Assembly (NCBI GenBank): GCA_045576655.1
Contig: JAZNGW010000028.1
Location: 35,885 to 99,884 of the forward strand
Direction: 5' to 3'
DNA from: Bacteroidaceae bacterium
GTDB taxonomy: Bacteria > Bacteroidota > Bacteroidia > Bacteroidales > Bacteroidaceae
Length of the DNA: 64,000 nucleotides
Both the position numbers and the translations under genes were made by a program. Positions 18,886-62,575 of this stretch are shown here, piece by piece. The notes below the pieces were generated by a model that ran no database searches, was not told the DNA's origin, and saw nothing but the letters and a program-made list of their open reading frames with translations. How positions within the stretch are numbered: position 1 is the stretch's first letter; each line of letters starts with the position of its first letter.

Positions 18886-21800
18886 TTATCTCACAAGAAC
18901 TTTCTTCTTATTGACGATGTAGATGCCTCGTGGAAGACCCTCGAGAGAGTCGCCTACCTTCTGCCCCTGGAGGTTGTAAACCACAACAGGGACGTTGTCG
19001 GTTTCAGTCTCAACCGCATCGATATCAGTGATGTGGTCCTTGGTCATATCTCCATAGTAGTAGAGGTGGAAGTTGTCGAAGATTGTCCAATAGCCGTCAC
19101 TGCTTGATGAGCAACGCAGACCAATCTTGAGACTATTCTTGCCCTCTGCCAACTCGGTCATGATTTCATTCTCATAGAGTCCCTTAGCGAAGTACTTGCT
19201 TGCTGCTTCCATGTTGTCAGGGATGTAGCGAACAGGGCTTCCCACTGATGCCTCTGAACCGCCGAGTTTTGAAGTGCGTGCTTCGGTGCCGATATGAGCC
19301 ACCTTAACCGATTCGGTGTTAGCGTAGAGGTATGTAGTCACCTTGTTAGTGCCGTTGACATAGTCAGAGTAAGCCGTAGCATACGCTCCTGGACGCTGGA
19401 ACGCCTGAACTGTTGTCTTGTAAGTTCCTGCAGGGAGTCCGGTAATTGTCTGGTTGAAGTCGAACGTAGCTTGATAGAACTCAAGGCATGAGAAGTTAAA
19501 TGTCGGAGCCACTGACCATCCTGTGTTGTCGCTGATTGAAGCATTCGTCACAAGGAAAGTAACGTCAAACGGTTCGTCAACGCTTGCAGGAGTAGCATTT
19601 GCAAGGAAGTCCATTCCTGCCTGGCTTGTGCTCTCAATTGTAGCGCGGAGCAGATCGAGACCGGAATTTGCATCATCGGCAACGGTCTGAGCGTAAGACA
19701 GAGCTGCGTCGATAGCAACGTCTGCACCTTCAGCATCTTCAGTGTGAGGAGTTGACTTCACCTTATTGAGGTTGGTAATAAGGGTCTTCAGTTCGTTGAG
19801 AGCTGAGAGACGTGCCGCTTCATCAAACTTGAGGGTCTCCTCAGCCGTGAGAATCACCCAGTGCTGCGATGCCGCGTCGGCTGAAAGGTCGAAGCCAGTT
19901 GCGCCCACATTGCCTGAAGCAGTAGCCACCATAGCACGTGGATTATTGTTTGTCACGTTCATAATCCAGTAGCCACGGACGTTAGTTGCCGACGTACCGC
20001 TACCTACCTTTATGTCTTTTCTGCCCTTCATGACGTGGAATTTCTCCGTAGCCGCAGGAGTAGTCTTCGTTGCAACCTTGAAGGTAGAGTTGCTGTAAGT
20101 GATGTACTGACCAGTGCCTACATTGCGGAACATGTAGTATTGCTTCACTGGGTCGAAGCTGAGGTACCATGCGAAGTTGTCGTCGTTAGCAACGTCAACC
20201 GATGTCGCTTCCTTCCACTTGAGCGAAGTGCCGCTCACCGTCAGATAGGAAGTAGTGAGTCCGAACGACGCACTTTCGTTCTTGATGTAGTACTTAACCT
20301 CATCGTCATGCTCAAACGTATATGCTGGCAGAGCAAAGCATCCGCTTGTAGGGGCTACTCCATCTTCATGCAATCCCTGAATGATGAGCGCCTGAGCCAT
20401 GTAGAGAGCGTCAGAACCGTTGTCTTCGTGAGCACCATTGATTCCATAAGGCCACATGTGCTGACTATCACCAGCCATTTTTGCCGTCGTGTTGTTATCC
20501 CAGAACTGGAGAACGCTGTTTGCGCGAGGACCTGTCCACGAACCGTCTACGAGCATTGTCCACCATCCGTTCTGAGTACCGACACCCACACCGTGGGCTG
20601 CCTCGTGGAGGATTGTACCTGTGCGCTGATATGAAACGTTAGGACCTACTCGCATCCATCCGCCGTAAGAGCAGTCGGCCGTAGGAGTGCCCGAACCGTA
20701 GTTGCCTGAAAGGTGGAATCCCTGCGTGCTCACAAGCTTGCCCCAAATGTCCTCGATGCCGTGGCGCATAGCTTCGCTAATACGTGCATTCTCCTCTGCG
20801 CTACCACCATTGTTCCAAGACCAGCTGATATTAGCCTTAGGGAGAGTGATAATCTTTATCTCATCGCCGTATGCCACCTGATAGCCCTCAGTCACGACAT
20901 AAGGGCGAGCGTAATAGACGGTTGAAGGCTTCATGTTCTCCATTATATAGATGCGTCCGCTATTGTCGATGTATCGTGTAGAACGCTGGTCGAGCACAGT
21001 AGGGTTCTTCTCAGTAGAGAAGCAGAATCCTGCCTCACGAAGTTTAGCTCCGTTGATATTGTATGTGAATCGGCCGAACGCCATCACCGAACCGCGTGCA
21101 TAGCGCTTGTCAGTCTTAGTTATTATCGGCATTGCCCCTGTAGGCGACTGAAGCATGAATGCAAATGCCGCCTCGTCGAGAAGCACGATGTGGTTAGCAA
21201 GGTCAGCATACGAAGTCGCTCCGTCGGCATAAGCAGCCTTTGCCGCATTGATTGCCGCGAGATATTCCTCTGCCCCCTCGCCAGCTCCGTCGCCATACTG
21301 AGTTTCAGCCTTTTCGATAGCGGCAAGCAGTTCAGCATAAGCGGCGATAGAGCGGTTTGCCTCGTCCGTAGCCTCGCGAAGCGGAGTTGAAACCTTGACA
21401 TAGCCCTCGGTTGCAGACTTGCCAAGTTCAGCAAGCACATCAGCCATCTTAGCGTCGAGAGCGTCCTTAGCGGCAGAGTGCATCTTCTTGTCTGCGATAG
21501 CAGCCGCCGCGTCATAGTAGCCCTGAAGAGCAACCTTGTAGTCGGCATCAGTACCTCCGATGTAGTAGAGTCGGAAGTTGTCGGCAGCGAGCCAGTTGCC
21601 CGTAGCGCCCTGAGCCATGAATCCTATTGTAGCGCTGCTTTCGATGTTTGTGAATACCAATGAATATTCAGCAGTCTTGTCAACAGCCGCCTTTGTGTTA
21701 TTAGCAAAAATCCACGCTCCGCTCTGCGATGCGTTAGGAGTGTCCTCCTGTATGTTCTGCGCACCGGCAACAAGTTTGTAAATACCGAGGTCGAGCCCCT

Positions 21801-23445
21801 CGATCTTTTGCACAACAGAAGCATCACCCACCTGTCCGCCTCTGCCAGTCCACTTCTCCACGTAAGTCGTCCCCTTCTTCTGCTTGAAAGACGAGTTTGT
21901 CTGAGTAGCCATGTGCTGAGCGGTCCATCCTTCAAACTGCTTCTCGAAACTTGGGTTGACAATAAGCGAAGTCATGTCGATAGGGTCCTCCTCCGAAGCA
22001 TTGCCATAGCGGTAGTTCTTCATGGCAAGCACGAGAGCGTCAATCTGCCTCTTCACGTCAGTGTTTGTAGCGCTCGCATCTGCACATACAGCCTGAGCCG
22101 CATCGATAGCCGCCTTCAGAGCCGCTGCCCCATTGCCTGTACCATCGCCATAGAGCGCAGCAGCCTCACTGATTGTTGCCTCAAGGTTCCCGACAAGCTC
22201 CTCCTTGCTCAGTCCCTTATAGATGAGTCGGAAGCCCTGCCAGTTCACCCACTGGTTGCTCGATGTCACCGCATATTTGATATTGACAGCGCCCTCAGCG
22301 TCGACAACGATATCCTTAGCCCAAGCCATAGCGTCGCCATGAGCCAAAGCCTGGCCGCACGACTGCATGCCGTTAGGCTGGATCTTGCCGTTGACGCTTG
22401 TCCAGTTGTTGTCCGTAGCATTTGTCACAGCATAATCGATTGTTCCCATCAGAGGAGTCTTTCCTGTGTAAGCGCCCTTGCCAGTTGTTACAGTAAGAGT
22501 TGGCGCCACACCCGAACCGTCCTCACGATAGAGCGAATGAAAACCGAGATCGTATGTTCCTAGCGGAAGCACATTGTCCTGTTCGAGAGTGAATGCCGAG
22601 TGGTAAATCTCAAACTCCTCCCAACCGAAAGCAGGGCTGCCGCTGTACCACTTGTCAGCACTTGCATTGCCCACCATGTCCGCATTGTCAAGCATGAACG
22701 ACACGTCGATAAGTTCAGTCAAGTCAACGCATACCGCCTTGAAGAGCTCGCGCGAAGCCCTCTCTATGCTCTCCACCGTAGCATTAGAAGCACTATAAGC
22801 CTCAAGGGCAGTTGCAATGGGCGCCTGATAAGCCCCTTCCTTGCCAGCATCCGCCACAGCCTTGTACACGTTGTACATAGCCTTCTTTGCCTTATACAGA
22901 GCGTAAGCACCATTAGTGATGTTAGACTCCTTGACAAATGCCCACTTCGTCATGCCCGCACCACCAGTAAGAGTCAAGTGACCGCCGTAAGTCCACGACA
23001 CGTCCAGCAACTTTCCAAACTTGTCATTGCTGAGCGTATACACACGGCTGCCTTCAGCAGTCTCCGAGTAAGTAAAATACTGGTTTGTCGACTTATTTAT
23101 AACTACATCATAAGCCGCCTCGCTTGGACAGGAAATGTAGTACGACCCGCCCTTCTCCTTGTTTCTCATCCTCACCTTACCGTCCGAAGCAATAACAGTG
23201 CTTTGATTAGGGATTGAGGCGGTATAGTCGCCGTTAGTCAGTCGAGCGGCACAAGCCTGCGTGTTGCTCGTCATGCCATACATCACGAAAGCGTCAGCCT
23301 CCACATTATAAATATACACTACGTCGGTCGACTTCAATCCGTCGAGACTTTCCCCAGGCACCTGCGGAGCCGTCCATGTCTGCGCCACAGCCGCCAACGA
23401 TGTACCTAAACATAGGCATAAGAAAGAAAGAAATCGGTTCTTCAT
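18886..23445 (-). CDS. Giant T9SS cargo protein, paralog P2: shared N-terminal array + Ig-like + HExxH zincin-like domain + ricin-like lectin + beta-sandwich + T9SS CTD
   Basis: 'GTILHEAAHGVGVG' (nt 20593..20607). QxW-type lectin repeats ('YYIKNE', 'YYMFRNVGTGQYIT', 'SQHWVIL'). Tail '...VVVYNLQGQKVGDSLEGLPRGIYIVNKKKVLVR'. Confidence 0.75.
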   Translation of the reverse strand: MKNRFLSFLCLCLGTSLAAVAQTWTAPQVPGESLDGLKSTDVVYIYNVEADAFVMYGMTSNTQACAARLTNGDYTASIPNQSTVIASDGKVRMRNKEKGGSYYISCPSEAAYDVVINKSTNQYFTYSETAEGSRVYTLSNDKFGKLLDVSWTYGGHLTLTGGAGMTKWAFVKESNITNGAYALYKAKKAMYNVYKAVADAGKEGAYQAPIATALEAYSASNATVESIERASRELFKAVCVDLTELIDVSFMLDNADMVGNASADKWYSGSPAFGWEEFEIYHSAFTLEQDNVLPLGTYDLGFHSLYREDGSGVAPTLTVTTGKGAYTGKTPLMGTIDYAVTNATDNNWTSVNGKIQPNGMQSCGQALAHGDAMAWAKDIVVDAEGAVNIKYAVTSSNQWVNWQGFRLIYKGLSKEELVGNLEATISEAAALYGDGTGNGAAALKAAIDAAQAVCADASATNTDVKRQIDALVLAMKNYRYGNASEEDPIDMTSLIVNPSFEKQFEGWTAQHMATQTNSSFKQKKGTTYVEKWTGRGGQVGDASVVQKIEGLDLGIYKLVAGAQNIQEDTPNASQSGAWIFANNTKAAVDKTAEYSLVFTNIESSATIGFMAQGATGNWLAADNFRLYYIGGTDADYKVALQGYYDAAAAIADKKMHSAAKDALDAKMADVLAELGKSATEGYVKVSTPLREATDEANRSIAAYAELLAAIEKAETQYGDGAGEGAEEYLAAINAAKAAYADGATSYADLANHIVLLDEAAFAFMLQSPTGAMPIITKTDKRYARGSVMAFGRFTYNINGAKLREAGFCFSTEKNPTVLDQRSTRYIDNSGRIYIMENMKPSTVYYARPYVVTEGYQVAYGDEIKIITLPKANISWSWNNGGSAEENARISEAMRHGIEDIWGKLVSTQGFHLSGNYGSGTPTADCSYGGWMRVGPNVSYQRTGTILHEAAHGVGVGTQNGWWTMLVDGSWTGPRANSVLQFWDNNTTAKMAGDSQHMWPYGINGAHEDNGSDALYMAQALIIQGLHEDGVAPTSGCFALPAYTFEHDDEVKYYIKNESASFGLTTSYLTVSGTSLKWKEATSVDVANDDNFAWYLSFDPVKQYYMFRNVGTGQYITYSNSTFKVATKTTPAATEKFHVMKGRKDIKVGSGTSATNVRGYWIMNVTNNNPRAMVATASGNVGATGFDLSADAASQHWVILTAEETLKFDEAARLSALNELKTLITNLNKVKSTPHTEDAEGADVAIDAALSYAQTVADDANSGLDLLRATIESTSQAGMDFLANATPASVDEPFDVTFLVTNASISDNTGWSVAPTFNFSCLEFYQATFDFNQTITGLPAGTYKTTVQAFQRPGAYATAYSDYVNGTNKVTTYLYANTESVKVAHIGTEARTSKLGGSEASVGSPVRYIPDNMEAASKYFAKGLYENEIMTELAEGKNSLKIGLRCSSSSDGYWTIFDNFHLYYYGDMTKDHITDIDAVETETDNVPVVVYNLQGQKVGDSLEGLPRGIYIVNKKKVLVR

Positions 23446-23492: not shown

Positions 23493-23500
23493 CAAAAGTA
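23493..23500 (-). promoter_or_regulatory. Candidate -7 box (TACTTTTG on minus strand) upstream of P2
   Basis: Exact TAnnTTTG match 48 nt upstream of the ATG at 23445. A second match lies at 23520..23527. Confidence 0.3.
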
Positions 23501-23557
23501 GAAAAAATCCCACACCCTGCAAAATTACCTTCTGCAAGATTCCACAGGGGGAAACGA

Positions 23558-23701
23558 CCCGCTCCGCACTGCTAAATTCACAACCCCTCGGAGAAAAGTA
23601 TAAATAAAAGTAATATTTGTACAAATAATAGTTTTATTTATATAAATATTAGTTTTATTCTTACAAATATAAGTTTTATTTATACTTTTCAGCGAAGGGT
23701 C
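23558..23701. repeat. AT-rich quasi-palindromic element with 17-bp inverted repeats bracketing a 64-bp segment (copy 1); inverton-like
   Basis: IRs GAAAAGTATAAATAAAA (23593..23609) and TTTTATTTATACTTTTC (23674..23690). Second copy at 62126..62272, with flanks reversed but an identical inner segment. Confidence 0.8.
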
Positions 23702-23773
23702 AGAAAGTTTGCACCGAGGTGAAAACAGTTTTTCATCCCAATTGGATTGATTTTTCAAGTCGTTGAATCTGAT

Positions 23774-23813
23774 AAAAAAAAGGAGAACGCATCATTAGAG
23801 ACGCATCCTCCTT
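23774..23813 (-). terminator. Probable rho-independent terminator of P3
   Basis: Minus strand: AAGGAG ... CTCCTT stem (22-nt loop) followed by TTTTTTTAT. Confidence 0.4.
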
Positions 23814-23840: not shown

Positions 23841-26800
23841 CTACTGCACAAGCACCTTCTTCTTGTTTACGATGTAGACGCCTCGTGGAAGCCCCTCGAG
23901 CGTGTTGCCCACTTTCTGTCCGTGGAGGTTGTACACCTCGACCGGTTTGTCAGAGTCTTCGCCAACCGTTTCATCCGCCTCGACCTTGTCGATTGCCGTC
24001 ACTGTCTCCGGCGAGATTGTTCCGTAGTAGTAGAGGCGGAAGTTGTCGAACACGCTCCAGTAGTTTGTACCTGCAGAAGGGCACTTGATTCCTATCTTGA
24101 GCGACGCGCCTTCGTCGTCCAGACGTGTGGCCACTTCGTTCTCGTAGGTTGAGAGCTTGAGATATGCCTCAGCCGACGCCATAGTGTTAGGTATGTAGCG
24201 TGTAGATGTGCCCACCTCGACATCATCGGCGTGGAGACGGGTGCGCCTTGCGCCTGCGGCGATGTTCTTAACCTTCACGGTGCTGGCTCCGGCATAGAGA
24301 ACGGTGTTGACATTGTCTGTGCCGCCTGTGTAGGAGTCGTAGACTGCATCGTATGCTCCCGGACGCTGGAAGGCCTTGGCGCGGAGCTGGTATGTTCCGG
24401 CTGGAAGACCGGTGATTGTCTGGTTGAAGTCGAACGACGACTGGAAGTACTCAAGGCATGAATTGCCGAATGTCGGTTTGGTTGACCACCCGCTGTTGTC
24501 GTCGATGGCGGCGTTCTTGACAAGGAATGTGATATTGAACGGACGGTACATGCTGGTTGGTGTGGCCTTGCCGAGGAAGTTCATTCCGGCTGTGCGAACC
24601 TGCTCTATCAGGGCTGTCACTTCGTTGGCAGTGGCTGCATCTGCGGCAAGGGATTCGACCGTAGCGATATCGTCGTCGAGAGCTGCGTCTGCTCCTGGCA
24701 CGTCCTCTGTGTGGGAAGTGAGTTTGAGTCGGCGCACATTGCTGATCATCTCGTCGAGTTCGGCAAGTGCCTTGTCCTTGAGTCCTGTCTCAAACTGCTC
24801 TATCTCGTCGGCCTGAAGGAATATCCATCGCTGTGCTGTGGCTGAGTTGTAGAGGTCGAGCGTGTTGGCTGCCACTCCTCCGTTGGCTGTAGCGGTAAAT
24901 GTGGCAGGATTTGACTTGGCTTCCGGGTGGATAATCCAATATCCGCGAGTCTTGAAACTGCCGAGTGCGACGTCCTGACGTCCCTTCATGAGGTGGAAGT
25001 CTTCGTTGGCGGCAGGTGTTGACTTGACGGCTGTCCTGATGCCGTTGGCCCCGTTGGCGGTGAAGGTGAGGTAGCGTCCTGTGGCAGCGTTGCGGAACTG
25101 GTAGTACTGGTTGTCTGGAGTGAAGGAGACGTACCATGCGGCACTGTCGTTGAGAGTGACGTCGCTTCCTGCCATGTCCATCCACTTGACGATGCCGTTC
25201 TTCTGTTCCACGAGATAGGAAGTGGCAAGTCCGCGGTCGGCAGATTCGCTCTTGATGTAGTACTTGGCATTGTCGTCCTGCTCGAAGACGTATGCCGGCA
25301 AGCAGAATGCTCCGGAATAGAAGTTGACAGGAATGAGTCCGTCTTCGCAGAATCCCTGGTTGATGAGGGAGTTGCCGATGTAGAAAACCTCTGTGTCGTT
25401 CCAGTTCTGAGGACCTGCCCAAGCACCTGGTTCGAGGTGTGCACCGTTGTGAGGGTATTTGTTGTGGAAGATGTTGTCCTGCGAGTAAGTCTCGCCCTTG
25501 TTTATAACGCCCCAGTGACCGCCGTCGTAAGCGCCGGTGATGACGAGGTTATCGTTGTTTTCCCAGAAACGCACTGCCTCGTTGGCACGGTCGCCCGCCC
25601 AGTAGCCGTTCACGGTTTCACGAAGCGGAGAAACTACCCATCCGCCCCAAATCTCGAGCGTACCGCCACCGATGCCGTGGTTCATCTCGTGCATGCAGGT
25701 TCCTGCACGCTGTCCCATGTTCGTACCGATACGCATTCCGCCGCCATATCCGCAGTCGGCGGTAGGGGTGCCAGGCGAGAATGTGCACGACACGTTGAAT
25801 CCGCGTATGCTGGTGTAGTTTGACCAGTAAGTAGTGGCAACCGTAAGTGCCGTGTTGATACGGTCGTTGTGTGCGGCGTCGCCACCGTTGTTGTACCAGT
25901 ATGTCACTCGTCCCTGCGGCAGAGTGGACATCTTGATGACATCGCCATAGCCCACAGCATAGCCCTTGGTGATAGCATAGGCACGCATGTAGTAGACTGT
26001 GGCCGGTTGCATGTCCATCCAGTACATGCGTCCGTTGTTTTCCAGATATTTTGTTGTGCGGTTGTCGAGCACGGTAGGGTCAGGTTCTGTGCTCCAGCAG
26101 AATCCCTGTTCAAGGATTTCGGAAGAAGTGACACCGCTCACCGTCATACGTCCGAATGCGGCGATGGCACCACGCACATAGCGCTTGTCAGTCACCACCG
26201 TAGGAACGGCGCCTGTAGGGTTGGTGAGGTTGTACTCAAACTCTGCCTTCTCAAGTTTCACGATCTCGGCAGCCATCTCTTCGAAAGTGGCGTCGAGGTT
26301 GTCGTTGACAGCCTTAGCCCCGTTGATTACGGCGAGGAACTTCTCCGCACCCTTCATCACACCGTCGCCATAAGCCACCTCAGCCTTGGCGATTGCGGCA
26401 GTGAGGTCGGCGTAAGCCTTTATCGAAGCCTTTGCCTGCTCCACAGCCTCGCGAAGCGGAGTGGACACAGCAGTGTAGCCATCGGCATTGTCCTTCTGGA
26501 GTTCAGCCTCAGCGGCTGCAATGCACGCCTTGAGGTTGTCGAGCACAGCATTGTGCATCTTCTCCCCTATGTATGGTTTGGCAGTCTCGATATAGCCCTC
26601 AAGTTCCTTCTTGAAGTCAGCAAACTCGCCACCGGCATAGTAGAGGCGGAAGTTGTCGACCGAAATCCAGTTGCCCGTAGCGCCTTCGGCAAGGAATCCT
26701 ACCGTAGCCTCATTCTCGATGTTGACGAACGTCACAGAATACTCATCCTTGCCCACAACCTCAGTCTTGGAGTTGTTGGCAACGACCCACGCACCAGTCT

Positions 26801-28511
26801 GAGCAGCGGAAGAACCCTCCTGAATGTTTTGGGCGGCAGCCTTGAGCACATAGACACCGAGTCCGAGACCATTCACCTTCTGCATCACGCTGCCATCGCC
26901 TACCTTACCGCCAGCACTGGTCCACTTCTCTACGTATGTGTTGCCATGTTTCAGAGAGAAGGCAGTGTTAGACTGGGCAGCCATGCCCGTCTGCGTCCAT
27001 CCCTCAAAACTGTTCTCAAAACTGTTGTTCACAATCAGGTGGCTCATATCCACCGGATTGTCCACCGAAGCCGATGTCCAGCGGTACTTCTCGATAGCAG
27101 AGAGCAGGTCGCTGTTAGCCATGATGACATCCGACTGACTTGCCGACTCATCGGCATACACAGCCTTAGCCGCATCGAGAGCAACCTTAAGGTCGGCAGC
27201 ACCCTTGCCGCTACCGTCGCCATAGAGAGCCTCAGCCTCGTCGATGGCATTCTTCAGTCCGTCCTTCACCGAAGCATCGCCAATGCCCTTGTAGACTATC
27301 ACGAAGCGCTGCCAGTTCAACCACTGCTCAGTGCTTGTCATCTTAGCGCTCACCGTAAGTTTTCCGTCCGAACCGACCTTCACATCGTCAGTCCACACAA
27401 GACTTCCGTCATGAGCCAGCGCCTGGCCGCACGACTGCATGCCGTTAGGAAGGAACTTTCCGTTAGAGGCAATCCAGTTGTTGCCCTGGTCATTGCCCAC
27501 AGCATACTCCAACGCACCTATAGCCACAGCACTCGCGCTTGCCGAAGTCTCACCCGAAGCAGTAACCTTCGGAGCAGTGCCACTGCCGTCCTCACGATAG
27601 AGAGCCTGCCAGCCCACAGAGTAAGAACCCTGAGGCACAGTCTGAGTCTGGCTCAAAGTGAAAGCAGAATGATACACCTCAAACTCGCCCCATCCGAAAG
27701 TGGCGTTGCTCGTAGCCCAGTTAGCCAAGTCGCCCTTGCCCACCATGTCGGCATCGTCGAAAAGGAACGACACGTCGACAGGCTCAGCCACATCGGCATA
27801 CACTGCCCAGAAGAGCGTGCGTGCAGCATCGATCACCTGCGAGGCCGTAGCGTCAGCATTGTCATAGACCGCCTTGGCGTCAGCAATGTACTTGGCATAC
27901 ACATCAGCCTTTCCGGCATCAGCCACTGCTTTGTACACGCCATACATCTGGCGCTTCACCTTATATGCCATGTAGCGGCCGTTGGTCACGTTCTCCTCCT
28001 TGATGAAAGCCCACTTCGTATGGCCATCACCCCCAACGAGAGTCACATGCCCGCCGAAGTCCCAGGTCACGTCAAGGTCCTTCCCCCACTTGGTATTGTT
28101 GAGAGTATAGACATTGCTCCCCTCTGCCGTCTCCGTGTAAGCAAAATACGGGTTAGCATTCTGGTCGCAATACACATCGTCGGCATTCAGACTTGGGCAT
28201 GAAAGAAAGAGCGTGTTATACGTCTTCATTCTAACTCTCACGTTTCCGCCCGAAACAAAAGCATAGCAGCGCTGAGGGTCTGACGCCGTAGCGTCGCCGT
28301 TGGTTAGTCGGGTAGCACAAGCGTTTGTGCCCCATGTCATACCGTTGATAAGGAAGGCGTCAGCCTCCACATTATAGAAATACACCACGTCCGACGATTT
28401 CAGTCCGTCGAGGCTCTCGGCAGGAACCTGAGGTTCCGTCCATGCCTGAGCCACGGCCGTCATAACCAAAGTGCCCCATAGAGCCATGGCAAAATAGATA
28501 CGTTTCATCAT
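23841..28511 (-). CDS. Giant T9SS cargo protein, paralog P3 (tandem duplicate of P2 architecture): HExxH zincin-like + ricin-like lectin + T9SS CTD
   Basis: Start at 'MMKRIYFAMALWGTLVMTAVAQAW'. 'GTCMHEMNHGIGGG' (nt 25677..25691). 'AQRWIFL' QxW motif. Tail '...VEVYNLHGQKVGNTLEGLPRGVYIVNKKKVLVQ'. Confidence 0.75.
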   Translation of the reverse strand: MMKRIYFAMALWGTLVMTAVAQAWTEPQVPAESLDGLKSSDVVYFYNVEADAFLINGMTWGTNACATRLTNGDATASDPQRCYAFVSGGNVRVRMKTYNTLFLSCPSLNADDVYCDQNANPYFAYTETAEGSNVYTLNNTKWGKDLDVTWDFGGHVTLVGGDGHTKWAFIKEENVTNGRYMAYKVKRQMYGVYKAVADAGKADVYAKYIADAKAVYDNADATASQVIDAARTLFWAVYADVAEPVDVSFLFDDADMVGKGDLANWATSNATFGWGEFEVYHSAFTLSQTQTVPQGSYSVGWQALYREDGSGTAPKVTASGETSASASAVAIGALEYAVGNDQGNNWIASNGKFLPNGMQSCGQALAHDGSLVWTDDVKVGSDGKLTVSAKMTSTEQWLNWQRFVIVYKGIGDASVKDGLKNAIDEAEALYGDGSGKGAADLKVALDAAKAVYADESASQSDVIMANSDLLSAIEKYRWTSASVDNPVDMSHLIVNNSFENSFEGWTQTGMAAQSNTAFSLKHGNTYVEKWTSAGGKVGDGSVMQKVNGLGLGVYVLKAAAQNIQEGSSAAQTGAWVVANNSKTEVVGKDEYSVTFVNIENEATVGFLAEGATGNWISVDNFRLYYAGGEFADFKKELEGYIETAKPYIGEKMHNAVLDNLKACIAAAEAELQKDNADGYTAVSTPLREAVEQAKASIKAYADLTAAIAKAEVAYGDGVMKGAEKFLAVINGAKAVNDNLDATFEEMAAEIVKLEKAEFEYNLTNPTGAVPTVVTDKRYVRGAIAAFGRMTVSGVTSSEILEQGFCWSTEPDPTVLDNRTTKYLENNGRMYWMDMQPATVYYMRAYAITKGYAVGYGDVIKMSTLPQGRVTYWYNNGGDAAHNDRINTALTVATTYWSNYTSIRGFNVSCTFSPGTPTADCGYGGGMRIGTNMGQRAGTCMHEMNHGIGGGTLEIWGGWVVSPLRETVNGYWAGDRANEAVRFWENNDNLVITGAYDGGHWGVINKGETYSQDNIFHNKYPHNGAHLEPGAWAGPQNWNDTEVFYIGNSLINQGFCEDGLIPVNFYSGAFCLPAYVFEQDDNAKYYIKSESADRGLATSYLVEQKNGIVKWMDMAGSDVTLNDSAAWYVSFTPDNQYYQFRNAATGRYLTFTANGANGIRTAVKSTPAANEDFHLMKGRQDVALGSFKTRGYWIIHPEAKSNPATFTATANGGVAANTLDLYNSATAQRWIFLQADEIEQFETGLKDKALAELDEMISNVRRLKLTSHTEDVPGADAALDDDIATVESLAADAATANEVTALIEQVRTAGMNFLGKATPTSMYRPFNITFLVKNAAIDDNSGWSTKPTFGNSCLEYFQSSFDFNQTITGLPAGTYQLRAKAFQRPGAYDAVYDSYTGGTDNVNTVLYAGASTVKVKNIAAGARRTRLHADDVEVGTSTRYIPNTMASAEAYLKLSTYENEVATRLDDEGASLKIGIKCPSAGTNYWSVFDNFRLYYYGTISPETVTAIDKVEADETVGEDSDKPVEVYNLHGQKVGNTLEGLPRGVYIVNKKKVLVQ

Positions 28512-28553
28512 TTTTACTTTAAGGTGTTTATAATACAACTAGTTAACAAACAA

Positions 28554-28561
28554 CAAAAATA
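28554..28561 (-). promoter_or_regulatory. Candidate -7 box (TATTTTTG on minus strand) upstream of P3
   Basis: Exact TAnnTTTG match ~43 nt upstream of the ATG at 28511. Confidence 0.3.
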
Positions 28562-28636
28562 GGGAGTTTTTAGCAAAAAGGCAAACATTTATTCCCCAAA
28601 GCCCCATCAGCCTTTTCGTCTCTCCCCCAACCCTCC

Positions 28637-30621: not shown

Positions 30622-30858
30622 CTATAGTCGATAGTCTTCACGCTGCTTTCTTGTCACCTTAACCTCTTGGGGTTCGTAGATGCACACGCCTGTTCCGTTG
30701 CCCTTAGGGTCTGTTGCACCTTGCGGAGTCCATTGCACTCTAACTATCGACGGAGTAACAAAGGTTAGCCTGGGATGCTCGCTCGCCCTGCCACAAACCG
30801 ACATGGCAAGAACGAGCGCCACGAATGTAATCCTCTTTATCTGATTAAAGCAGAGCAT
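30622..30858 (-). pseudogene. 78-codon remnant resembling the signal peptide + N-terminal beta-sandwich of a glycosidase (GH31/DUF4968-like 'TPSIVRVQWTP')
   Basis: Far too short for such a domain family. The other frame also stops within 10 codons. Its ATG overlaps the upstream stop (TAATG). Confidence 0.35.
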
Positions 30859-33800
30859 TATTTTATCAGAATAACTTTTCCATTTATGATGTTAAATCCC
30901 TTTTCTTTCCTGTTCAATTTGCGACCCTGCAAATCATAGATAGCATTGTCACTCTCGGTGCTCTGTTCCTTGATAGTAACATTGTCTATACCAACTTCTT
31001 CATCGCAAGGACCAACGTAATGAAGGCGAATGTTATCGTACTTGAAATTGTTGCTCTTGTAGTTCTGCAAGCGTACGCCAATAGTGAGATTGCCATCCTC
31101 AGCCATAACTAAGTCAAGGGATGTGTCGGCATTGCCTTGGTGCTTCAAGTCGACGCTTTGGTTGTTTGCGAAAAGGTATGCGCCTTCTGCAGGGCATAGA
31201 CTGTAAAGGGTCAGACGATACTTACCCTTTGGCAAGCCTTTCACGGTCTGACTGATTGATCGGTTGCTCAAGTTGCCGCTGCTCTGCCAGTTGTTCATAT
31301 AGGCGTAGTACTCACATCCTGGGAGATAACCTTGATGCTCAACCATACCTTCACCTTCGACAATCCATCCTATAGGGTGGCGACTTTCGTCGTAACGGCC
31401 GAAACTTGGGTTAGTGATGAGCGGAGTTATGTCGAGCGGATTCTCCTCGGTTGCCTGCGCCCAGTTGCTGAACTGCTGGAGATATTTGACGCGCGGAATG
31501 GCATAAATGTCGAAATAGGACACATTGGCATCGCGCTTATCGGCAGCAAACTCTGCTCCGTCCTCGAACGCTCCGTGTACCCAAGGGCCGAGGTAAGCGC
31601 CTGTAGTTTTATTCTTCAGCGCCCAACCCTTTTCACTGTAAAGTTCAGGGTAGATCATGGCGATGCTGCGATTGCCGTCCATGCCGTATGAATCGCCCTG
31701 CTTATGCACGTCAGAATAGGTTTGCCACAAAGCATGGTTCCATCCCTCCGTACGGAAATGACGGTTGAGGTCGGCGAGCGGAGTGATGATTATTTTCAAG
31801 TCGTCGGTAGCATCAAAAGCGTCGAAGGCGAAAACGCCTGAGATATTTGTGTTAGGGTCGACGCCGCTGGCGTAATACATAGCATAGGTGTTGCCCCAGT
31901 TCTTGTCACCAACGGTATTGAGCGCAGCAACGGTCATTCCTGATTCGGCATCGAGGATGGCGAAGTAACTATTGGCGCAGTCTATTCCGCTGAAAGTATC
32001 GACTAATGTCCATCCTGCTTCGAGCAATTTCTCACCTACAGTTTTCTCCTCCTCTTCTTCCTCTTCCGTCAGTTCTTCTGTGATAACGAATGTCTGCTCG
32101 GCAGCGAAAGCCGAACCAGCATAGCCTGCATCGACAGCCTGCACGCTCCATGCGTAGTTGCCTCGAGGCAAGCGGCGGAGTGTCCACCCGAGATTGAGCC
32201 ATGCGTTACCCATAGAGGTGACGCGTCGCGCACCTGTTGCGATATCCGAATTAGGGAACATAAGGTACTGCCCAGTGTCAAGATTGCGCAGATAGTAATT
32301 GTAGGAAAGGCTCTTGACTGGTGTTTCCGCATCGGAACCGCTGTTCCACTTCAGCACCACACTGTTGCCAACAACCTCGGCAGAGAGATCTGTAGGAGGA
32401 AGCGGAGCGGTATTCGTGCGCTCAGTCTTATTCTTGCAGAGTACAGCCAATCGGCGGTCAACATTGTAGCCGTGGAATCCCATGGCTCCGTTAGCGTTAC
32501 CGCAGATAAGGATGTCGTTGCGTCCCTCACCAGTGAAGTCGGCCAGTTCGAGCGACGACTCACTGACGCCTGGCAAATCGACATCACTCTTTGTGAAGCG
32601 ACCTGTTCCGTCGTTAAGGAACACGTCCACTTGTGCTATGTTGCCTTGCGACATGTTCCAACCAGCTATAATCAGATCGGAATGTCCGTCGTTATTCCAA
32701 TCGCAGAAGCGTATAGGATGCGACACATTGTCTTGCATATATTCGCTAAACTCCTGAGCCAGAGAGAAAGTACCGTCTCCTTTGTTCAGGTAAAGCGACA
32801 CAGTCTTACCGCCCTCGGCAGCTGTAGTCGACCAAATTTCGCCGACAAGTTCACCGCCTATAGCCACATCAAGCCATCCGTCGCCGTTGACATCGGCATA
32901 GGCCATGCCGCCTCGAGTACCCTTTTCCTTAAAGCCCGCGCTCTTCTCTGTGAACACACCAGTTCCGTCGTTATAGTGGACACGGGTATATACGCCACCA
33001 CTCTTGTCTGAGAGCAGACAGAGATCCACGCTCTGGCTGTTGTCAAAGTCGGCATACATGATAGTAGGTTCATTGAATCCACCAGGCAAAGTAAGTTTGG
33101 ATTTCTTGTCATAGCCATCGCGTGCAGTTTTCTGAGTATAGAACGTATTGCGCGAACCATTGCCTATGAAGAAATAGTCAGGAAGCGCATCGTTGTTGAT
33201 GTCGGCAATACCACATGCTGGAGCTACGGACGATCCGTCCGACAAGTCCTCTGCCACAAGTTTGCCGCTTCCGTCGTTCATGAGCACTGCATTGTAAGCG
33301 TCCCAGAAGTCAAAACCCGACTGAACGAGGTCGATGTGTCCGTCGCCATTTAGATCACCAGCAGCAAGATTGCACAATGTGGCGTTAGTAATGGTCTGTG
33401 TAGCCACAAAACCATAGTTGCCTGTATTGATGCGCACACCACCCACTCGTGTCTGATTGCCCTCACCACCGCTGTATACAATATCGCGGAGGTTATCGTT
33501 GTTGAGGTCGACAGCCACAGCATCACCAAGTTTAAATCCGTCGTTCTGCGAAATGTAGTCTATCTGGTCGCGATCAGCATTAACCTTGTCGCCAATGGAG
33601 TCGACAGGCGCATAAGTCGGCACCGTAACCTTATTGACTATTTCCTTATACGCTTCTTCCAAACCAGCTTGCTCTCTAATAGCGTCACTTACGTTCGCGC
33701 CATTGTTTCCCCAATTATTGTGACCGCCGTTCTTGTTCTTCGAAATATTGCCCAGACACCAGTTGTCAGCCACAGTGTAATAGTCCGTACCCTCATCGGT

Positions 33801-35492
33801 ATAGATGTCAAACTGAGCAGTCTTCATGTCCCACATCAAAGGGCAGTGCTCAGGATCACCAGGTTTCTCAATGTAGTTGCCGATAATTGAGGAATTAGGT
33901 TGAGGAGAAAGTGTATAAATGGCTCCGCAGTCACGAAGCTGAACCGAGAATCCATTTATATGATTGTACTTGATGTGGTTGTCGTGCATGATGTTATGGG
34001 TGCTTATCCATCCCCATCCCATACTTATCGCAGTATAAGGAGTGCCGACTATCTCATTATGAAGGATGTTGACATTTGACGCAAAGCCTATTCCTACACC
34101 TATACAGCCCCAGTCCTCGTTAGCGACATTAGTTATATAGTTGTTGGTCACGTAGATGCTGTCGCAGACCACGCGCATATCTTCAGGGTTATATGCCTGA
34201 TGAACCTCGAAAGTCTCGTCGCCGAAAAATCCACCAGAAACACCTGAGCCGGCAATGTCAGAGAAAACACACCCGTTGACTTTCATGTTGCGAGTTCCAC
34301 TGACAAAATCGAGAGCTGTAGAACCCATGTGACGGAAATGGCATCCCTCAAACGACACGTTACGGGCATTCTGCACACTGACACCTGCTGCGGGACGACC
34401 TACCCACGCCACGTTGTTGGCTGTGGCAGTGTTCTCTGACCAAGCGTCAAAAAGGTACTGGCCTGCTTGCAACTCCACATGGCCGTCAGTAGACGGACGC
34501 ATCCAAGTAGTATGTTCAAAAGTGATGCCACGGAAGTGGATATTAGAAGCTAAATTATCCAAGCTACCGCTTATGCTTACAAGAGTTTCAAGACGAGGCA
34601 CTACAGTTTCGATATTCTCAGGGGTCTCACCGCTGCGTGGCCAATAATACATGGTGTTGCCATCTACGTCATTAAACCACTCCTGCGGACGGTTGAGCAG
34701 TTCGATAGCATTCGAAAAGAAAAAGCGATGGTTTGCATGACTACCGTAGTCAGCACGCAATATTGGCCAAGGGCGCTTGAACTCAATATCTGCCTCCTTC
34801 GACTCGAACGACAACACACTGCTGAAGGCGTTGTTATGCTTGATATTAGTGACACGCATAACGTTCACAACCCAGTCCTGCGGAATATTCAGTTCCAAAT
34901 GCTTAGCGTTGCTCAGATCCATAAGAGGGCGAGGAACTGTTAGCGTCTTCGCATTCTTGTCGACAGAGATTATCTGCGGCATAGACATATCGTCGAAGGT
35001 GCTAGCACGACGCATCTTGACGCCGTTGATCCACAACTGACGGAATTCCACAGGTTTGCCGTCTACAACAGGAGTTGACATCTGCCATATTTGTCCCTGT
35101 GCCACCTCTGGCAAACCTGCCACAGCACCCGCCTGTTCCCATCCGTCAGCAAGCACACCACCGCTAATAACGGGCGTTTCACCCTCAGCGGCCATAATGA
35201 TTGTAGGAGATTCAGGAGTACCACCGTCGGCAGCACTCAGTTCTATAGTACGGTCTATACGATATGTTCCACCGCGCATGACGATTTGCACTTCACCCAA
35301 CCCGTCTGGGGCATTATTCTTGCGCAACTCACGCACATGCTCCAATGCTTTGCCGAGAGTTGCGTAAGGAGCGTCTTCAGTACCAGCAGCGACATCCGAA
35401 CCTGTTGGTGCTACCCATACCTGAACTATTGTCTGAGCCATCAAGCCACATGCGATGGTCAAAGAAACAAATAATGAGATATATCTTTTCAT
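30858..35492 (-). CDS. 1544-aa T9SS cargo protein: right-handed beta-helix + FG-GAP/VCBS-type propeller + Fn3 + poly-Glu linker + unknown domain + beta-sandwich + CTD
   Basis: - N-terminal 'VWVAPTGSD..GTEDAPYATLGKALEHV...GGTYRI' beta-helix entry motif.
- About 7 repeats of the D-x-N-x-D-G type ('AGDLNGDGHIDLV', 'ADVNGDGWLDVAIGG', 'CDWNNDGHSDLIIAG').
- 'EELTEEEEEEEK' linker (nt ~32045..32075).
- Tail '...IYDLQGRKLNRKEKGFNIINGKVILIK'. Confidence 0.7.
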   Translation of the reverse strand: MKRYISLFVSLTIACGLMAQTIVQVWVAPTGSDVAAGTEDAPYATLGKALEHVRELRKNNAPDGLGEVQIVMRGGTYRIDRTIELSAADGGTPESPTIIMAAEGETPVISGGVLADGWEQAGAVAGLPEVAQGQIWQMSTPVVDGKPVEFRQLWINGVKMRRASTFDDMSMPQIISVDKNAKTLTVPRPLMDLSNAKHLELNIPQDWVVNVMRVTNIKHNNAFSSVLSFESKEADIEFKRPWPILRADYGSHANHRFFFSNAIELLNRPQEWFNDVDGNTMYYWPRSGETPENIETVVPRLETLVSISGSLDNLASNIHFRGITFEHTTWMRPSTDGHVELQAGQYLFDAWSENTATANNVAWVGRPAAGVSVQNARNVSFEGCHFRHMGSTALDFVSGTRNMKVNGCVFSDIAGSGVSGGFFGDETFEVHQAYNPEDMRVVCDSIYVTNNYITNVANEDWGCIGVGIGFASNVNILHNEIVGTPYTAISMGWGWISTHNIMHDNHIKYNHINGFSVQLRDCGAIYTLSPQPNSSIIGNYIEKPGDPEHCPLMWDMKTAQFDIYTDEGTDYYTVADNWCLGNISKNKNGGHNNWGNNGANVSDAIREQAGLEEAYKEIVNKVTVPTYAPVDSIGDKVNADRDQIDYISQNDGFKLGDAVAVDLNNDNLRDIVYSGGEGNQTRVGGVRINTGNYGFVATQTITNATLCNLAAGDLNGDGHIDLVQSGFDFWDAYNAVLMNDGSGKLVAEDLSDGSSVAPACGIADINNDALPDYFFIGNGSRNTFYTQKTARDGYDKKSKLTLPGGFNEPTIMYADFDNSQSVDLCLLSDKSGGVYTRVHYNDGTGVFTEKSAGFKEKGTRGGMAYADVNGDGWLDVAIGGELVGEIWSTTAAEGGKTVSLYLNKGDGTFSLAQEFSEYMQDNVSHPIRFCDWNNDGHSDLIIAGWNMSQGNIAQVDVFLNDGTGRFTKSDVDLPGVSESSLELADFTGEGRNDILICGNANGAMGFHGYNVDRRLAVLCKNKTERTNTAPLPPTDLSAEVVGNSVVLKWNSGSDAETPVKSLSYNYYLRNLDTGQYLMFPNSDIATGARRVTSMGNAWLNLGWTLRRLPRGNYAWSVQAVDAGYAGSAFAAEQTFVITEELTEEEEEEEKTVGEKLLEAGWTLVDTFSGIDCANSYFAILDAESGMTVAALNTVGDKNWGNTYAMYYASGVDPNTNISGVFAFDAFDATDDLKIIITPLADLNRHFRTEGWNHALWQTYSDVHKQGDSYGMDGNRSIAMIYPELYSEKGWALKNKTTGAYLGPWVHGAFEDGAEFAADKRDANVSYFDIYAIPRVKYLQQFSNWAQATEENPLDITPLITNPSFGRYDESRHPIGWIVEGEGMVEHQGYLPGCEYYAYMNNWQSSGNLSNRSISQTVKGLPKGKYRLTLYSLCPAEGAYLFANNQSVDLKHQGNADTSLDLVMAEDGNLTIGVRLQNYKSNNFKYDNIRLHYVGPCDEEVGIDNVTIKEQSTESDNAIYDLQGRKLNRKEKGFNIINGKVILIK

Positions 35493-52400: not shown

Positions 52401-52445
52401 GCAGCTAAGCATTATCGCCAATATTTTGAAATAATTACTTTTCAT
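49431..52445 (-). CDS. 1004-aa lipoprotein, candidate type V pilus tip/accessory subunit
   Basis: Lipobox 'GLASCADDD'. FimA/Mfa-like N-terminal pattern with an Arg ('VVKVRG') at the expected prodomain-cleavage region. Last gene of the pilus operon. Confidence 0.5.
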   Translation of the reverse strand: MKSNYFKILAIMLSCIMGLASCADDDLYMSPEQGDAPEGFVKLSFETDIQEMEVVKVRGVDPDGYDVHNMTLFCFNPYGLFVTTVEATLTKTTATTGTFEAVVPEETKIVHFVANQNSALYDNKDFINKSEASVIADMEGASGMMVYWARFEASDNGAKLKEELADLPNGIVLVRNQAKVSIADWNTPYIEVTGFVTTNIHAFGTVAPYSNEEGFEWPGTNPYITLPNNTVMMSDIEDVNTKEEDYIFEHENTVDNPVSVIIRGVPQGETQEKYFRVAIVDADGEQLMIKRNHSYVLNISGKLTHGSDTFQDAMEAPFTNNVWISIDSWVKAVEDATYKLEVKETGIVLDANEAGSDYKVYYTITRKNGSLTSADMASVVWLGENDVAQHNFVNHEFAINGNVGEGCVTIKLNPMAKDIQTGTLLIKKGRLQRTVEVNVIKTQVFTPAWVGTQVYGGATGQFVTVKFTVPEECPDVLYPFPVLVTVNSLDVRSASGMQLPVIRKGDDEWFGADYANHDYKYEYIVEGPGVHRIYFENILTHEDGDKESVWLEANHFETLEKEFEFSGYQKAITVSGLNKYYGGTVGDTYADDEVVYYKLVPKKRYAHVDFNMVMMDNSTDPATPINVGVNDEFLLFSKSLDHYEDHEPIPGGLSHECDYYEVDESYWKTSSNGRMVMFMPKNPTPANTGHYALHLKTNRPISDDVVRIASNASMNPSILPSNSGANYTGNSYRSMIFELATYRPFRFAARVNGLGENTTGQNEETVSNIELTYLPNQNVDISFDVTSFEGSDGACVDPFGESFEIYIDAPMLTIDESRLAAFNLTGDKLFAHPSVKGRFVYKVEPTRDAERNFGTGEALLKDNSASSQAGERKTLPFKTNRVTTAGDIKISSNKEKVIFYDKVFRLRNKKITGTIQYNDGGSLRDVPEDAFVAFARTKDGVRIGSIEIAEGGKYSLNLRSEYEFNWTMDEIEFNFNIGDVDYDCKIGSLDELFNSPNVVLNVAI

Positions 52446-52479
52446 AATTTTGCATTTATCTTGTTTTGACTAATACCCA

Positions 52480-54714: not shown

Positions 54715-54725
54715 ATTGATTATTT

Positions 54726-56219: not shown

Positions 56220-56223
56220 AGCA

Positions 56224-57258: not shown

Positions 57259-57446
57259 AGTCGTATGTTTTTATATATTATTCCGTACGTTAATCTGCAC
57301 AGTCGAAAAATTCCAATTCGGTGGAAACCCGTTGGGTTTCAGATGCGTGTCTCTCTTTGCACCGGCACGCTAAGTGCTTTCATAAACTTGAGTTCTTCAA
57401 ACCGCGTTTATTGCTAAACTCTCCTTTGCAATTCTTTAAGTTGGGG

Positions 57447-57481
57447 AGATTGTAGTGTGGGGAGCCCCCACACTACAATCT
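57447..57481 (-). terminator. Perfect 16-bp stem / 3-nt loop hairpin 15 nt downstream of the major pilin stop (attenuator or RNA-stabilising hairpin)
   Basis: AGATTGTAGTGTGGGG-agc-CCCCACACTACAATCT. No long U tract after it on the minus strand. Confidence 0.5.
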
Positions 57482-57495
57482 TTAATTATGTGCAA

Positions 57496-59085: not shown

Positions 59086-59122
59086 AATTGTAATTTTAAA
59101 GAGTTAATCGTATTAGTCTTAT

Positions 59123-60529: not shown

Positions 60530-60544
60530 CGTTATCTGTTTTTA

Positions 60545-61141: not shown

Positions 61142-61241
61142 ATTACTTAGTTTTTTAGTTTTGTTATTTCTCGTGTTACCTTTCTCCATATAATAATGCT
61201 TCTTCATTTCTTAGAGAGACCACGTCTCACATTGTCTGATG

Positions 61242-61797: not shown

Positions 61798-62125
61798 AAT
61801 CTATGCATGAATTTTTATTAATCTGATATGCAAAGAAAGCGAACAAAGAAAACTATTCGTTATCAATAAATTGATTTTATTTTCCCGTGCTTTTATTTCC
61901 ATTTCCTCTAAGTGTATATATGTAAGGAATTGCAAAAATCGTGTGGGACAGATCGAAGAAACACAGGCAAATCTGCGCCATTCTCATATGCATACATTAT
62001 AACCAGAGAGTGGCTATGAGGATACTCCCTATTCCGCTTATTACACTAAAAGCCAGCACTATCGCCCTAAAAGAAATCCGCTTAGCCTCGATGCAAAACC
62101 GCCAGCACTGCGCTCCTTACTTCCC

Positions 62126-62272
62126 GACCCTTCGCTGAAAACTATAAATAAAAGTAATATTTGTACAAATAATAGTTTTATTTATATAAATATTAGTTTT
62201 ATTCTTACAAATATAAGTTTTATTTATACTTTTCTCCGAGGAGGTATAAAATATTTAGCGGGGTGGAGGTGA
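62126..62272. repeat. AT-rich quasi-palindromic IR-bracketed element, copy 2 (flanks reversed relative to copy 1, inner 64 bp in same absolute orientation)
   Basis: IRs at 62137..62153 (one mismatch) and 62218..62234. Inner segment 62154..62217 is identical to 23610..23673. Confidence 0.8.
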
Positions 62273-62280
62273 GTTTCTAC

Positions 62281-62575
62281 CGAGGTGGCTGTTGTTTTCG
62301 GGCGGGCGAATCCCGTCCCTACGTTAACAACGGGAACGATAACGATAACGTTAACAACAATGCACGTGTAGGGGCAGACCAGTGTGTCTGCCCGAATGTA
62401 GTTGGAACCACAGATTTCGCAGATTCACGCAGATTATTTTTGAGACGGGAACGGGAATTGCTTTCGGGCGGACACGTAGGTCCGCACCCTACGACAATAA
62501 CGGGAACGATGCCGGTAACGGGAACAATGGTGACATCGTTGCGGGCGAGCAGACGTCGCTCTTACCTTCAGAACT
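62281..62575. repeat. Mosaic of dispersed word repeats (AACGGGAACG/ATAACG words, CAGATT words, GC hairpins)
   Basis: Examples: GGGCAGAC-cagtgt-GTCTGCCC (62372..62393), 'CCACAGATTTCGCAGATTCACGCAGATT' (62409..62436), and repeated 'AACGGGAACGAT'. Confidence 0.7.

Follow-up and report, generated by a model that had tools for sequence, protein, structure and literature searches.

BOX elements of Streptococcus pneumoniae and bacterial interspersed mosaic elements (BIMEs) of Escherichia coli, the latter being mosaics of repetitive extragenic palindromic (REP) units, are modular repeats that are dispersed over intergenic DNA. Here, we describe a repeat of this class in a Bacteroidaceae bacterium, starting from a stretch of 64,000 nucleotides (GenBank assembly GCA_045576655.1, contig JAZNGW010000028.1, positions 35,885 to 99,884) that is called the window in the following and to which all coordinates given without a locus name refer. 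An earlier note on this DNA, made from its sequence, had drawn attention to two copies of an element in which a 64-bp core between 17-bp inverted repeats (IRs) is flipped relative to its flanks, and had taken this as the footprint of an invertible promoter (inverton) pointing at a neighboring gene, P2. Our data show that both copies are members of a family of non-coding, intergenic repeats that is present in high copy number in an uncultured, gut-type lineage of Bacteroidaceae, and that the flip is probably a fixed, historical product and not a recombinase-driven promoter switch.

The family belongs with the modular dispersed intergenic repeats and has the defining features of that class. Like BOX elements and BIMEs, it comes in ~100 or more copies, is non-coding, encodes no protein, and sits between genes in all gene contexts, with a variable number of modules and a strong potential to form hairpins. 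The build differs: conservation here is highest in the centre, an AT-rich array of 21-bp direct repeats, and the arms are inverted arrays of 22-bp units instead of boxA-(boxB)n-boxC or alternating Y and Z REPs. Similarity in sequence to BOX or BIME is not expected.

BrickBuilt, a Porphyromonas gingivalis MITE (miniature inverted-repeat transposable element; PMC4596501), shares with our family a Bacteroidales host, an intergenic location (without exception in BrickBuilt), AT-rich promoter-like motifs, and an imperfect minisatellite of locus-variable copy number, with units of 23 nt there and of 21 or 22 nt here. In contrast, BrickBuilt has a unique leader and tail, IS5-type terminal repeats (GAGACCTTTGCA), and ~19 copies (PMC4596501), whereas our elements contain no terminal repeat of the IS5/BrickBuilt (GAGACCTTTGCA) type and have fuzzy outer ends, a palindromic build, and at least 89 copies. 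As to the features of MITEs in general, the 17-bp IRs are internal, and neither shared outer termini nor a target-site duplication at the IRs was found. REPINs (PMC3116915) resemble the family in having two short, invariant, inverted sequences ~70-80 bp apart, a hairpin, a high copy number, and an extragenic location, but their ends are conserved and their spacer is variable, whereas here the core is as conserved as the IRs (96%), and the family is AT-rich, not GC-rich. Clustering of the flanking open reading frames (ORFs), a search made without a RAYT profile, gave no recurrent transposase-like ORF that could be a RAYT partner. Finally, the Bacteroides invertons of capsule and fimbrial promoters (PMC11892184, PMC11602134) likewise have short IRs and a polar AT-rich segment of <300 bp, and one of our copies lies upstream of a pilus-type operon. 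However, we saw no orientation polymorphism at orthologous loci, no full promoter, and no invertase nearby among the ORFs scanned, and the ~100 near-identical copies here are dispersed over arbitrary gene contexts. Of the inverton features tested, only the presence of IRs was found.

RESULTS

Both copies belong to a dispersed repeat family

P2 is a minus-strand gene of ~1500 aa (18886-23445, ATG at 23445), and P1 is its upstream paralogue (23841-28538); copy 1 of the element lies between them. The two 64-bp cores (23610-23673 and 62154-62217) are indeed identical in 64 of 64 positions on the same strand, as seen by direct reading and by script comparison. The 17-bp IRs that bracket them (GAAAAGTATAAATAAAA / TTTTATTTATACTTTTC) are located where the earlier note had put them; they are perfect in copy 1 and match in 16 of 17 positions in copy 2, in which the left IR reads GAAAACT... 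instead of GAAAAGT... The swap of the flanks, on which the idea of an inversion had been based, is real, though much stronger on one side than on the other. When copy 2 is read on the opposite strand, its left flank matches the right flank of copy 1 (AGCGAAGGGTC...) in 11 of 11 positions, extending to 16 of 18, whereas its right flank, read likewise, has a weak match to the left flank of copy 1 (CCTCGGA and GCTAAAT in common), the alignment score of which (18) is no better than that of a direct (L1-versus-L2) alignment (also 18). The core, described as clearly asymmetric, is less so than stated: it is identical to its own reverse complement in 48 of 64 positions (75%), and the whole region is a quasi-palindrome with arms of 72 + 72 nt that are 76% complementary. 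Folding of the two window copies as DNA gives long hairpins, with z-scores of -6.7 and -4.2. A 23-nt junction pattern (≤3 mismatches) had 8 matches in the 64-kb window and 0 in 100 shuffles, and chance is therefore ruled out.

Scanning of metagenome contigs with the junction pattern gave at least 120 loci, and the family counts in this work are therefore lower bounds. The loci are mostly from four sister samples (Ga0233373, 374, 376, and 378), with others from JAEIGA01, ERZ808026, and RHMF01. Fuzzy matching of the 98-bp centre (IR, core, and IR) in these loci revealed at least 101 instances and at least 89 distinct copies, and 67 of the 89 distinct centres have ≤4 mismatches in 98 nt. Contig L011 is 97.45% identical to window positions 59807-62237, which shows that the window comes from the same lineage as the metagenome copies. 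An exact scan for the junction pattern in one genome per GTDB species gave only 3 single chance matches (Clostridia, Oscillospiraceae), and none of the GTDB representative genomes was found to carry the family. Exact-protein look-ups gave no matches for six window proteins and, for the 127-aa protein encoded beside copy 2, only contigs that break at the IR. Indeed, all four Logan short-read contigs with this gene (L124-L127) end exactly 4 nt into the IR; the repeat thus systematically breaks k-mer assemblies, and this breakage may explain why the family went undetected in the GTDB representative genomes. Homologues of P2 are named only "MAG: hypothetical protein [Bacteroidaceae bacterium]," a search of the whole window against Rfam gave no family at the gathering score, and we found no published description of this repeat family.

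The element is ~250 bp in size, non-coding, and intergenic. Its centre (98 bp, ~86% AT) consists of 3-5 direct 21-bp units between the 17-bp IRs, and Tandem Repeats Finder (TRF) assigned to the core array a period of 21 bp with 4.0 copies and 80% matches. Each 21-bp unit is a palindromic box, TATTTRTAYAAATA (also given as TATTTGTACAAATA), followed by a 7-nt spacer, nnAGTnn. All four spacers carry their G on one and the same strand, which gives the core its polarity, and 7 of the 9 asymmetric position pairs in the centre are of the kind "same base on the same strand." The IRs are the outer half-boxes plus GAAAAG. Their start-to-start spacing is 81 bp in 98 instances. Centres with one unit fewer or with extra sequence also exist: the IR spacings found are 56, 60, 80, and 81 bp, and L100 has a longer centre. 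On either side, homology goes on for ~45-110 nt in the arms, which are inverted arrays of degenerate 22-bp units, 1-7 in number. The arm unit is [AT][CG]CGAGGTG plus 13 nt ending in a T-run (for example, ACCGAGGTG...), and TRF found periods of 21 and 22 in the elements. The numbers of 21-bp and of 22-bp units differ from copy to copy, and pairwise identity is 95.7% for the centres and 52-55% for the arms. Read outward, the junction between centre and arm has two flavours, a (TCCG or ACCG) and b (AGCG). The parts of the two window copies, with the arms as obtained by unit parsing and the IRs of copy 1 by direct reading and script comparison, are as follows.

23547..23592, no strand: P2-side arm of copy 1, two degenerate 22-24-nt units with the a-type junction ...CCTCGGA at the end
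23593..23609, plus strand: left 17-bp IR of copy 1, GAAAAGTATAAATAAAA
23610..23673, plus strand: polar AT-rich core of copy 1 (64 bp) in 21-bp units, identical to 62154-62217
23674..23690, minus strand: right 17-bp IR of copy 1
23691..23757, no strand: P1-side arm of copy 1, three units, with inner unit AGCGAAGGGTCAGAAAGTTTGC and a b-type junction
62026..62136, no strand: b-type arm of copy 2, 22-nt units and a conserved outer tail, ...GGGCGATAGTGCTGGCTTTTAGTGTAATAAG
62137..62234, plus strand: 98-bp centre of copy 2, IR (one mismatch), 64-bp core, and IR, in the majority (ba) arrangement
62235..62297, no strand: a-type arm of copy 2, TCCGAGGAGG..., AGCGGGGTG..., ACCGAGGTG..., then unrelated repeat modules

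The BLAST homology of copy 2 to other family members starts at 62026. With few exceptions, the copies are intergenic; all four gene-orientation contexts are represented, with 12 copies in convergent, 9 in divergent, and 28 in tandem settings. Arms and centres occur together: of the 177 arm matches obtained with nhmmer in the fetched loci and the window, 154 abut a centre, the other inspected ones abut variant or truncated centres or contig ends, and no arms-only "empty" site was among them. The match at 39779-39843 was considered as an arms-only site and rejected as a match by chance within a gene for a fucosidase. A direct repeat of 2-9 nt abutting the IRs was found in none of 83 copies; the outer boundaries are too fuzzy for the same test. 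All orthologous pairs are filled and gave no filled-versus-empty comparison for boundaries or target-site duplications, and in the P2 orthologues that do not have the element (L128, L129, and L132), another gene lies upstream and the intergenic region cannot be aligned. The captured loci contained no IR pairs separated by DNA of the length of an insertion sequence (IS), and all-versus-all clustering of 1128 flanking ORFs revealed no recurrent recombinase, transposase, or other protein family beside the copies. A replichore-style co-orientation of the cores was also considered and rejected: where one contig carries more than one core, these point the same way in the window and in L036 but opposite ways in L006/L009, L055, L062, and L090.

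The polarity of the core relative to the arms varies across the family

The earlier note had proposed a genome-wide search for more copies with a tabulation of core orientation against flanks. Copies were oriented by their core, and the 78 classifiable ones were typed by their inner junctions (left, right), with the following result.

Arrangement ba: 54 copies, including window copy 2
Arrangement ab: 14 copies, including window copy 1
Arrangement aa: 6 copies
Arrangement bb: 4 copies

Both polarities are thus present, and with them two kinds of mosaic; left and right junction types are associated, not exclusive (Fisher p = 8e-8). In at least 5 of the 14 ab copies (L041, L075, L103, L036 at 10233, and L007), whole multi-unit arms are swapped, which demonstrates that a true relative inversion of the centre occurred in the history of the family. 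The footprint is real and family-wide. Window copy 1 is not among the copies with swapped arms; past the junction trinucleotide, both of its arms are b-like (log-likelihood ratio of -5.3 for the P2-side arm and -5.5 for the other). Over nt 4-22, the a/b log-likelihood ratios are -7.1 ± 6.4 and +6.6 ± 6.3, a weak gradient. Discrete classes of a and b arms were considered and rejected, as single-linkage clustering merges all arms and only the junction trinucleotide is sharply bimodal.

The outermost bases of the IRs go with the arms. The IR variant A1/T98 (position 1/98) is found next to b arms only, in 12 of 60 on the left and 12 of 22 on the right, and next to a arms in 0 of 20 and 0 of 63, respectively. 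The base at IR position 6/93 goes together with the arm or, in other copies, with the core, and in several copies (e.g., L109, L087, and L047) asymmetric pairs within the centre are flipped or symmetrised piecemeal, the outermost pairs only. The break points of the flip are not fixed.

Orientation is the same at orthologous loci, and junctions change

The copy-1 locus was fetched from other assemblies via P2 homologues, and the orientation of the core relative to P2 was the same as in the window in 5 of 5: L130 (ERZ28436081; P2 92% identical), L133 (Ga0233373; P2 93% identical), L134, and L135 and L136 (P2 88% identical). In L135 (100-300) and L136 (90-290), ~150 extra bases lie between the element and the P2 promoter, with a duplicated GGTAATTTTG motif on either side. 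At the copy-2 locus, L011 has the same core orientation as the window, and the sole other divergent orthologous pair, L018 and L031, also agrees in orientation. Among loci with both flanks in common, there were zero flipped pairs; in the available assemblies, the orientation is fixed at each locus.

What differs between strains is the junction. On the P1 side of copy 1, it reads CGCT in the window and L130 and CGGA in L133, with the core unchanged. With a slash for the junction, L130 has ...CTGCGCT/AAAAAG and L133 has ...CTGCGGA/GAAAAG, the latter being the perfect complement of ...CTTTTC/TCCG. Similarly, L018 has CTTTTT/AGCGAGGAGGC and L031 has CTTTTC/TCCGAGGAGGC, that is, T/AGCG versus C/TCCG, and again the core is unchanged. 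At two loci, strains thus differ by a clustered change of 3-4 nt at the junction that makes the palindrome perfect. The window strain has, in addition, a 20-nt inner unit of its own (AAACTTTCTGACCCTTCGCT) in an intergenic region that is otherwise ~95-100% identical, and L130 and L133 have different sequences in the place of the inner unit AGCGAAGGGTCAGAAAGTTTGC of the P1-side arm. The 16-of-18 flank match to copy 2 is due to this window-specific unit.

Promoters and neighboring genes

A perfect Bacteroides -7 box (TATATTTG) is present in the core of copy 1 as the complement of 23664..23671, and the ATG of P2 is at 23445, both as the earlier note had said. The full Bacteroidetes promoter consensus, TTTG-N19-21-TAnnTTTG, has 2 matches in the window, neither of them inside an element, and at the level of motifs no full promoter was found in either copy. 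The element has an isolated perfect -7 box only, and this box is lost in L133 (CTTATATTTG to CTATTATTTG). A sigma-70-type scan gave 2 matches versus 1.4 expected and is uninformative for Bacteroidetes. The signals outside the repeat are as follows.

23493..23523, minus strand: TTTG-N19-TACTTTTG, a promoter-like site of P2 itself, with the element on one side and the ATG on the other
28554-28585, minus strand: P1 promoter match to TTTG-N19-21-TAnnTTTG, just upstream of 23841-28538
23780..23813, minus strand: terminator-like hairpin and T-run after the upstream paralogue, kept in the alignment with L130 and L133

The P2 promoter match is conserved in orthologues from other samples. Across the family, the polarity of the core has no bias with respect to the direction of the flanking genes (34 versus 33 on the left, 33 versus 38 on the right). 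The earlier note had also suggested a search for invertases; a Pfam scan of 26 window ORFs, which did not extend to those at 49431-59085, revealed neither a recombinase nor a transposase.

The window is ordinary chromosome that encodes glycoside hydrolases and functions for fucose utilisation and carries a DUF3575/DUF3868 pilus-type operon. The tandem ~1500-aa paralogues P2 and P1 are located in a glycan-utilisation region and have no Pfam hit; PF14200 or PF16405 is present in some P2 homologues, and a third gene (30858-35492) has GH141 and FG-GAP domains. The related strains L128, L129, and L132 do not have the upstream paralogue and carry GH97 directly upstream of P2. Copy 2 lies in a 969-bp divergent region between the pilus-type operon on the minus strand (57496-61797; 127-aa ORF, DUF3575, DUF3868/TPR, and 529-aa ORF) and a 380-aa HTH_18 (AraC-type) regulator on the plus strand (62766-63908). 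Genes of the pilus class are often phase-variable in Bacteroidales; beside this operon, no variation in orientation was seen between the window and L011.

Other repeats and rearrangements next to the element

Further repeat modules adjoin the a-type arm of copy 2 at 62295-62500: a GC hairpin (GGGCGGGCGAATCCCGTCCCTAC), a run of AACGGG/AACGAT/AACGTT hexamers, and the hairpins GTAGGGGCAGACCAGTGTGTCTGCCC and GGGCGGACACGTAGGTCCGCACCCTAC. These modules are also found after a-arms in L017, L020, L047, L053, L068, and L097, and several families of repeats seem to make up the intergenic DNA of this lineage. Four loci, L053 (60-130), L055 (~90-127), L062 (~105-143), and L086 (~50-110), have another sequence in common, ...CAAGTCAACCTAAGATATAAATAAGACGGAAAAGGTCAACCAAATTCGTTAAACCAC, by which the element is interrupted or truncated on its left. 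The reverse complement of this sequence comes after arms in L033 and in L057, and the sequence resembles an IS end that landed in or next to the repeats. Furthermore, the sister-sample contigs L036/L097/L081, L025/L108, L079/L098/L106, and L103/L122 have unique DNA in common on one side only, and one such pair is in inverted configuration. This implies either rearrangements between strains at copies of the repeat or mis-joins across the identical 98-bp centre.

DISCUSSION

Our data point toward a flip that arose in the past of a palindromic repeat family and became fixed locus by locus. In the mechanism that we propose, a polar centre sits between weakly polar arms, the two polarities being usually coupled, and the flip would result from recombination-like events templated by the IRs of the element itself or by other copies. 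One such event may be template switching by a polymerase, which could homogenise IR arms and invert an IR spacer. Indeed, "homogenization of IR arms" and "IR spacer inversion" are both reported for short IRs (PMC8604942), IR correction by template switching occurs in bacteria (PMC5941160), and bacterial and general models of the process have been put forward (PMC5941160, PMC5453318). The clustered changes that perfect IR arms at orthologous loci and the inverted spacer resemble the process described in these papers; being a mutational process, it accounts for the footprint and not for the existence or spread of the repeat. Quasi-palindrome template switching had been raised in the earlier note as a caveat, and it is the better-supported mechanism. 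The other event may be short-tract ectopic conversion between copies, which could be aligned one way or the other, the IRs being identical in both directions. Where a change does not raise complementarity, the opposite arm cannot be its source, and another copy would have been the template; the inner unit of the window strain and any a-to-b change would be of this kind. Arm homogenisation at orthologues, occasional inversion of the spacer, variable end points in the IR, and replacement of ~20-nt patches are the pattern that bears on the mechanism, and from it we infer a template switch or ectopic conversion. Sequence constraint or concerted evolution would have kept the centres nearly identical; candidate reasons are selection for a phased protein-binding or structural array on the one hand and concerted evolution on the other. 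As to function, a phased protein-binding or structural DNA array is our guess.

Several points weigh against this interpretation. The inversion of a 64-nt spacer by template switching is extrapolated from other systems, and the spread of the family to ~100 loci is not accounted for by template switching. Ten further orthologous pairs are 100% identical, represent the same strain in sister samples, and carry little weight, and assemblies give the majority orientation only, a level at which low-frequency switching at either locus could go unseen. Finally, a dedicated enzyme acting on the IRs could likewise give the strong ba/ab bias and the near-identical centres.

Among the alternatives, a mobile cassette survives best, and even this we consider unlikely. 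As a miniature transposable or converting unit, the 98-bp centre would, in one orientation or the other, insert into or overwrite older arm arrays at their dyad centre, and the two polarities, both of which exist, would be independent insertions. The identities of the centres (~96%) and the arms (~52-55%) look as if the centre had spread much later, and its size and 81-bp IR spacing are like those of REPIN units, the invariant ends of which are 71 bp apart (PMC3116915). However, the survey of 177 arm matches, 154 of them next to a centre, yielded no arms-only site into which a cassette could have gone, the 83 copies inspected for a target-site duplication abutting the IRs had none, and the captured loci contained neither a longer element with the same IRs nor a recurrent transposase. 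Furthermore, the outermost IR bases co-segregate with the arm type and not with the core, and the flipping unit is therefore smaller than the IR-bounded cassette.

An active inverton is, in our view, very unlikely. Here, an unlinked site-specific recombinase would flip the IR-bounded segment and turn an outward TATATTTG promoter toward or away from neighboring genes such as P2 and the type V pilus operon. It is true that (near-)perfect 17-bp IRs enclose a polar segment, that both relative polarities occur in the family, and that apparent break points lie inside the IRs. Both window cores aim their perfect -7 box at a minus-strand gene, copy 2 is upstream of the DUF3575/DUF3868 pilus-type operon, and most known invertons are <300 nt (PMC11602134). 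Nevertheless, 5 other assemblies agree with the window in orientation at locus 1, as does 1 at locus 2, a full promoter is found in neither copy whereas P2 has its own, and the perfect -7 box is lost in orthologue L133. Core polarity is unrelated to gene direction, twelve copies lie between convergent genes, and the aa and bb mosaics and variable break points misfit a fixed crossover. The Pfam-scanned window ORFs (those at 49431-59085 lying outside the scan) included no recombinase, and no protein family recurs near the copies. In addition, the 81-bp distance from IR centre to IR centre is at the lower limit for recombinase synapsis, which also counts against an inverton. The DNA inversion across the IRs that the earlier note had deduced is thus borne out as an event in the history of the family, by the ab and ba copies (14 versus 54) and the whole-arm swaps, and not as a switch at the orthologous loci, where the core keeps the same orientation in the assemblies available.

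Less likely again is a function of the near-identical, polar 98-bp centre as a cassette (e.g., a phased array to which a nucleoid or regulatory protein binds, or an outward promoter of low strength) that an unlinked enzyme acting on the 17-bp IRs would actively flip or exchange among ~100 or more loci. If true, miniature invertons would form a set that spans the genome, or the cassettes would be a system that homogenises itself, with an orientation that is strongly biased at most loci and hence invisible in consensus assemblies. Least probable of all are two anciently diverged, fixed subfamilies (ba and ab) that were amplified separately with no inversion after the split, which would agree with the fixed orientation at each locus and with the diagnostic IR variants (G at 93, T at 98) common to the ab copies L075, L083, L103, and L014 but not with ab and ba centres that are indistinguishable (0-3 mismatches, with internal variants common to both classes), with aa and bb mosaics, with a junction type that changes between strains at one locus, or with ab copies that fall into several groups with different IR states, which suggests that the ab copies are polyphyletic.

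Read as fixed products of a palindromic repeat family, the two copies show how an "inverton footprint" in a pair of sequences can arise without a switch: in a quasi-palindromic family, junction bases and inner units are overwritten by templated events. Inverton calls that are made without reads in repeat-rich Bacteroidales therefore need a check across the family and at orthologous loci. The element combines, in an unusual manner, an ultra-conserved AT-rich array of 21-bp direct repeats with rapidly diverging, inverted minisatellite arms of 22-bp units. The family may mark rearrangement break points between strains, and it is natural material for the study of template switching and of the concerted evolution of bacterial palindromes.

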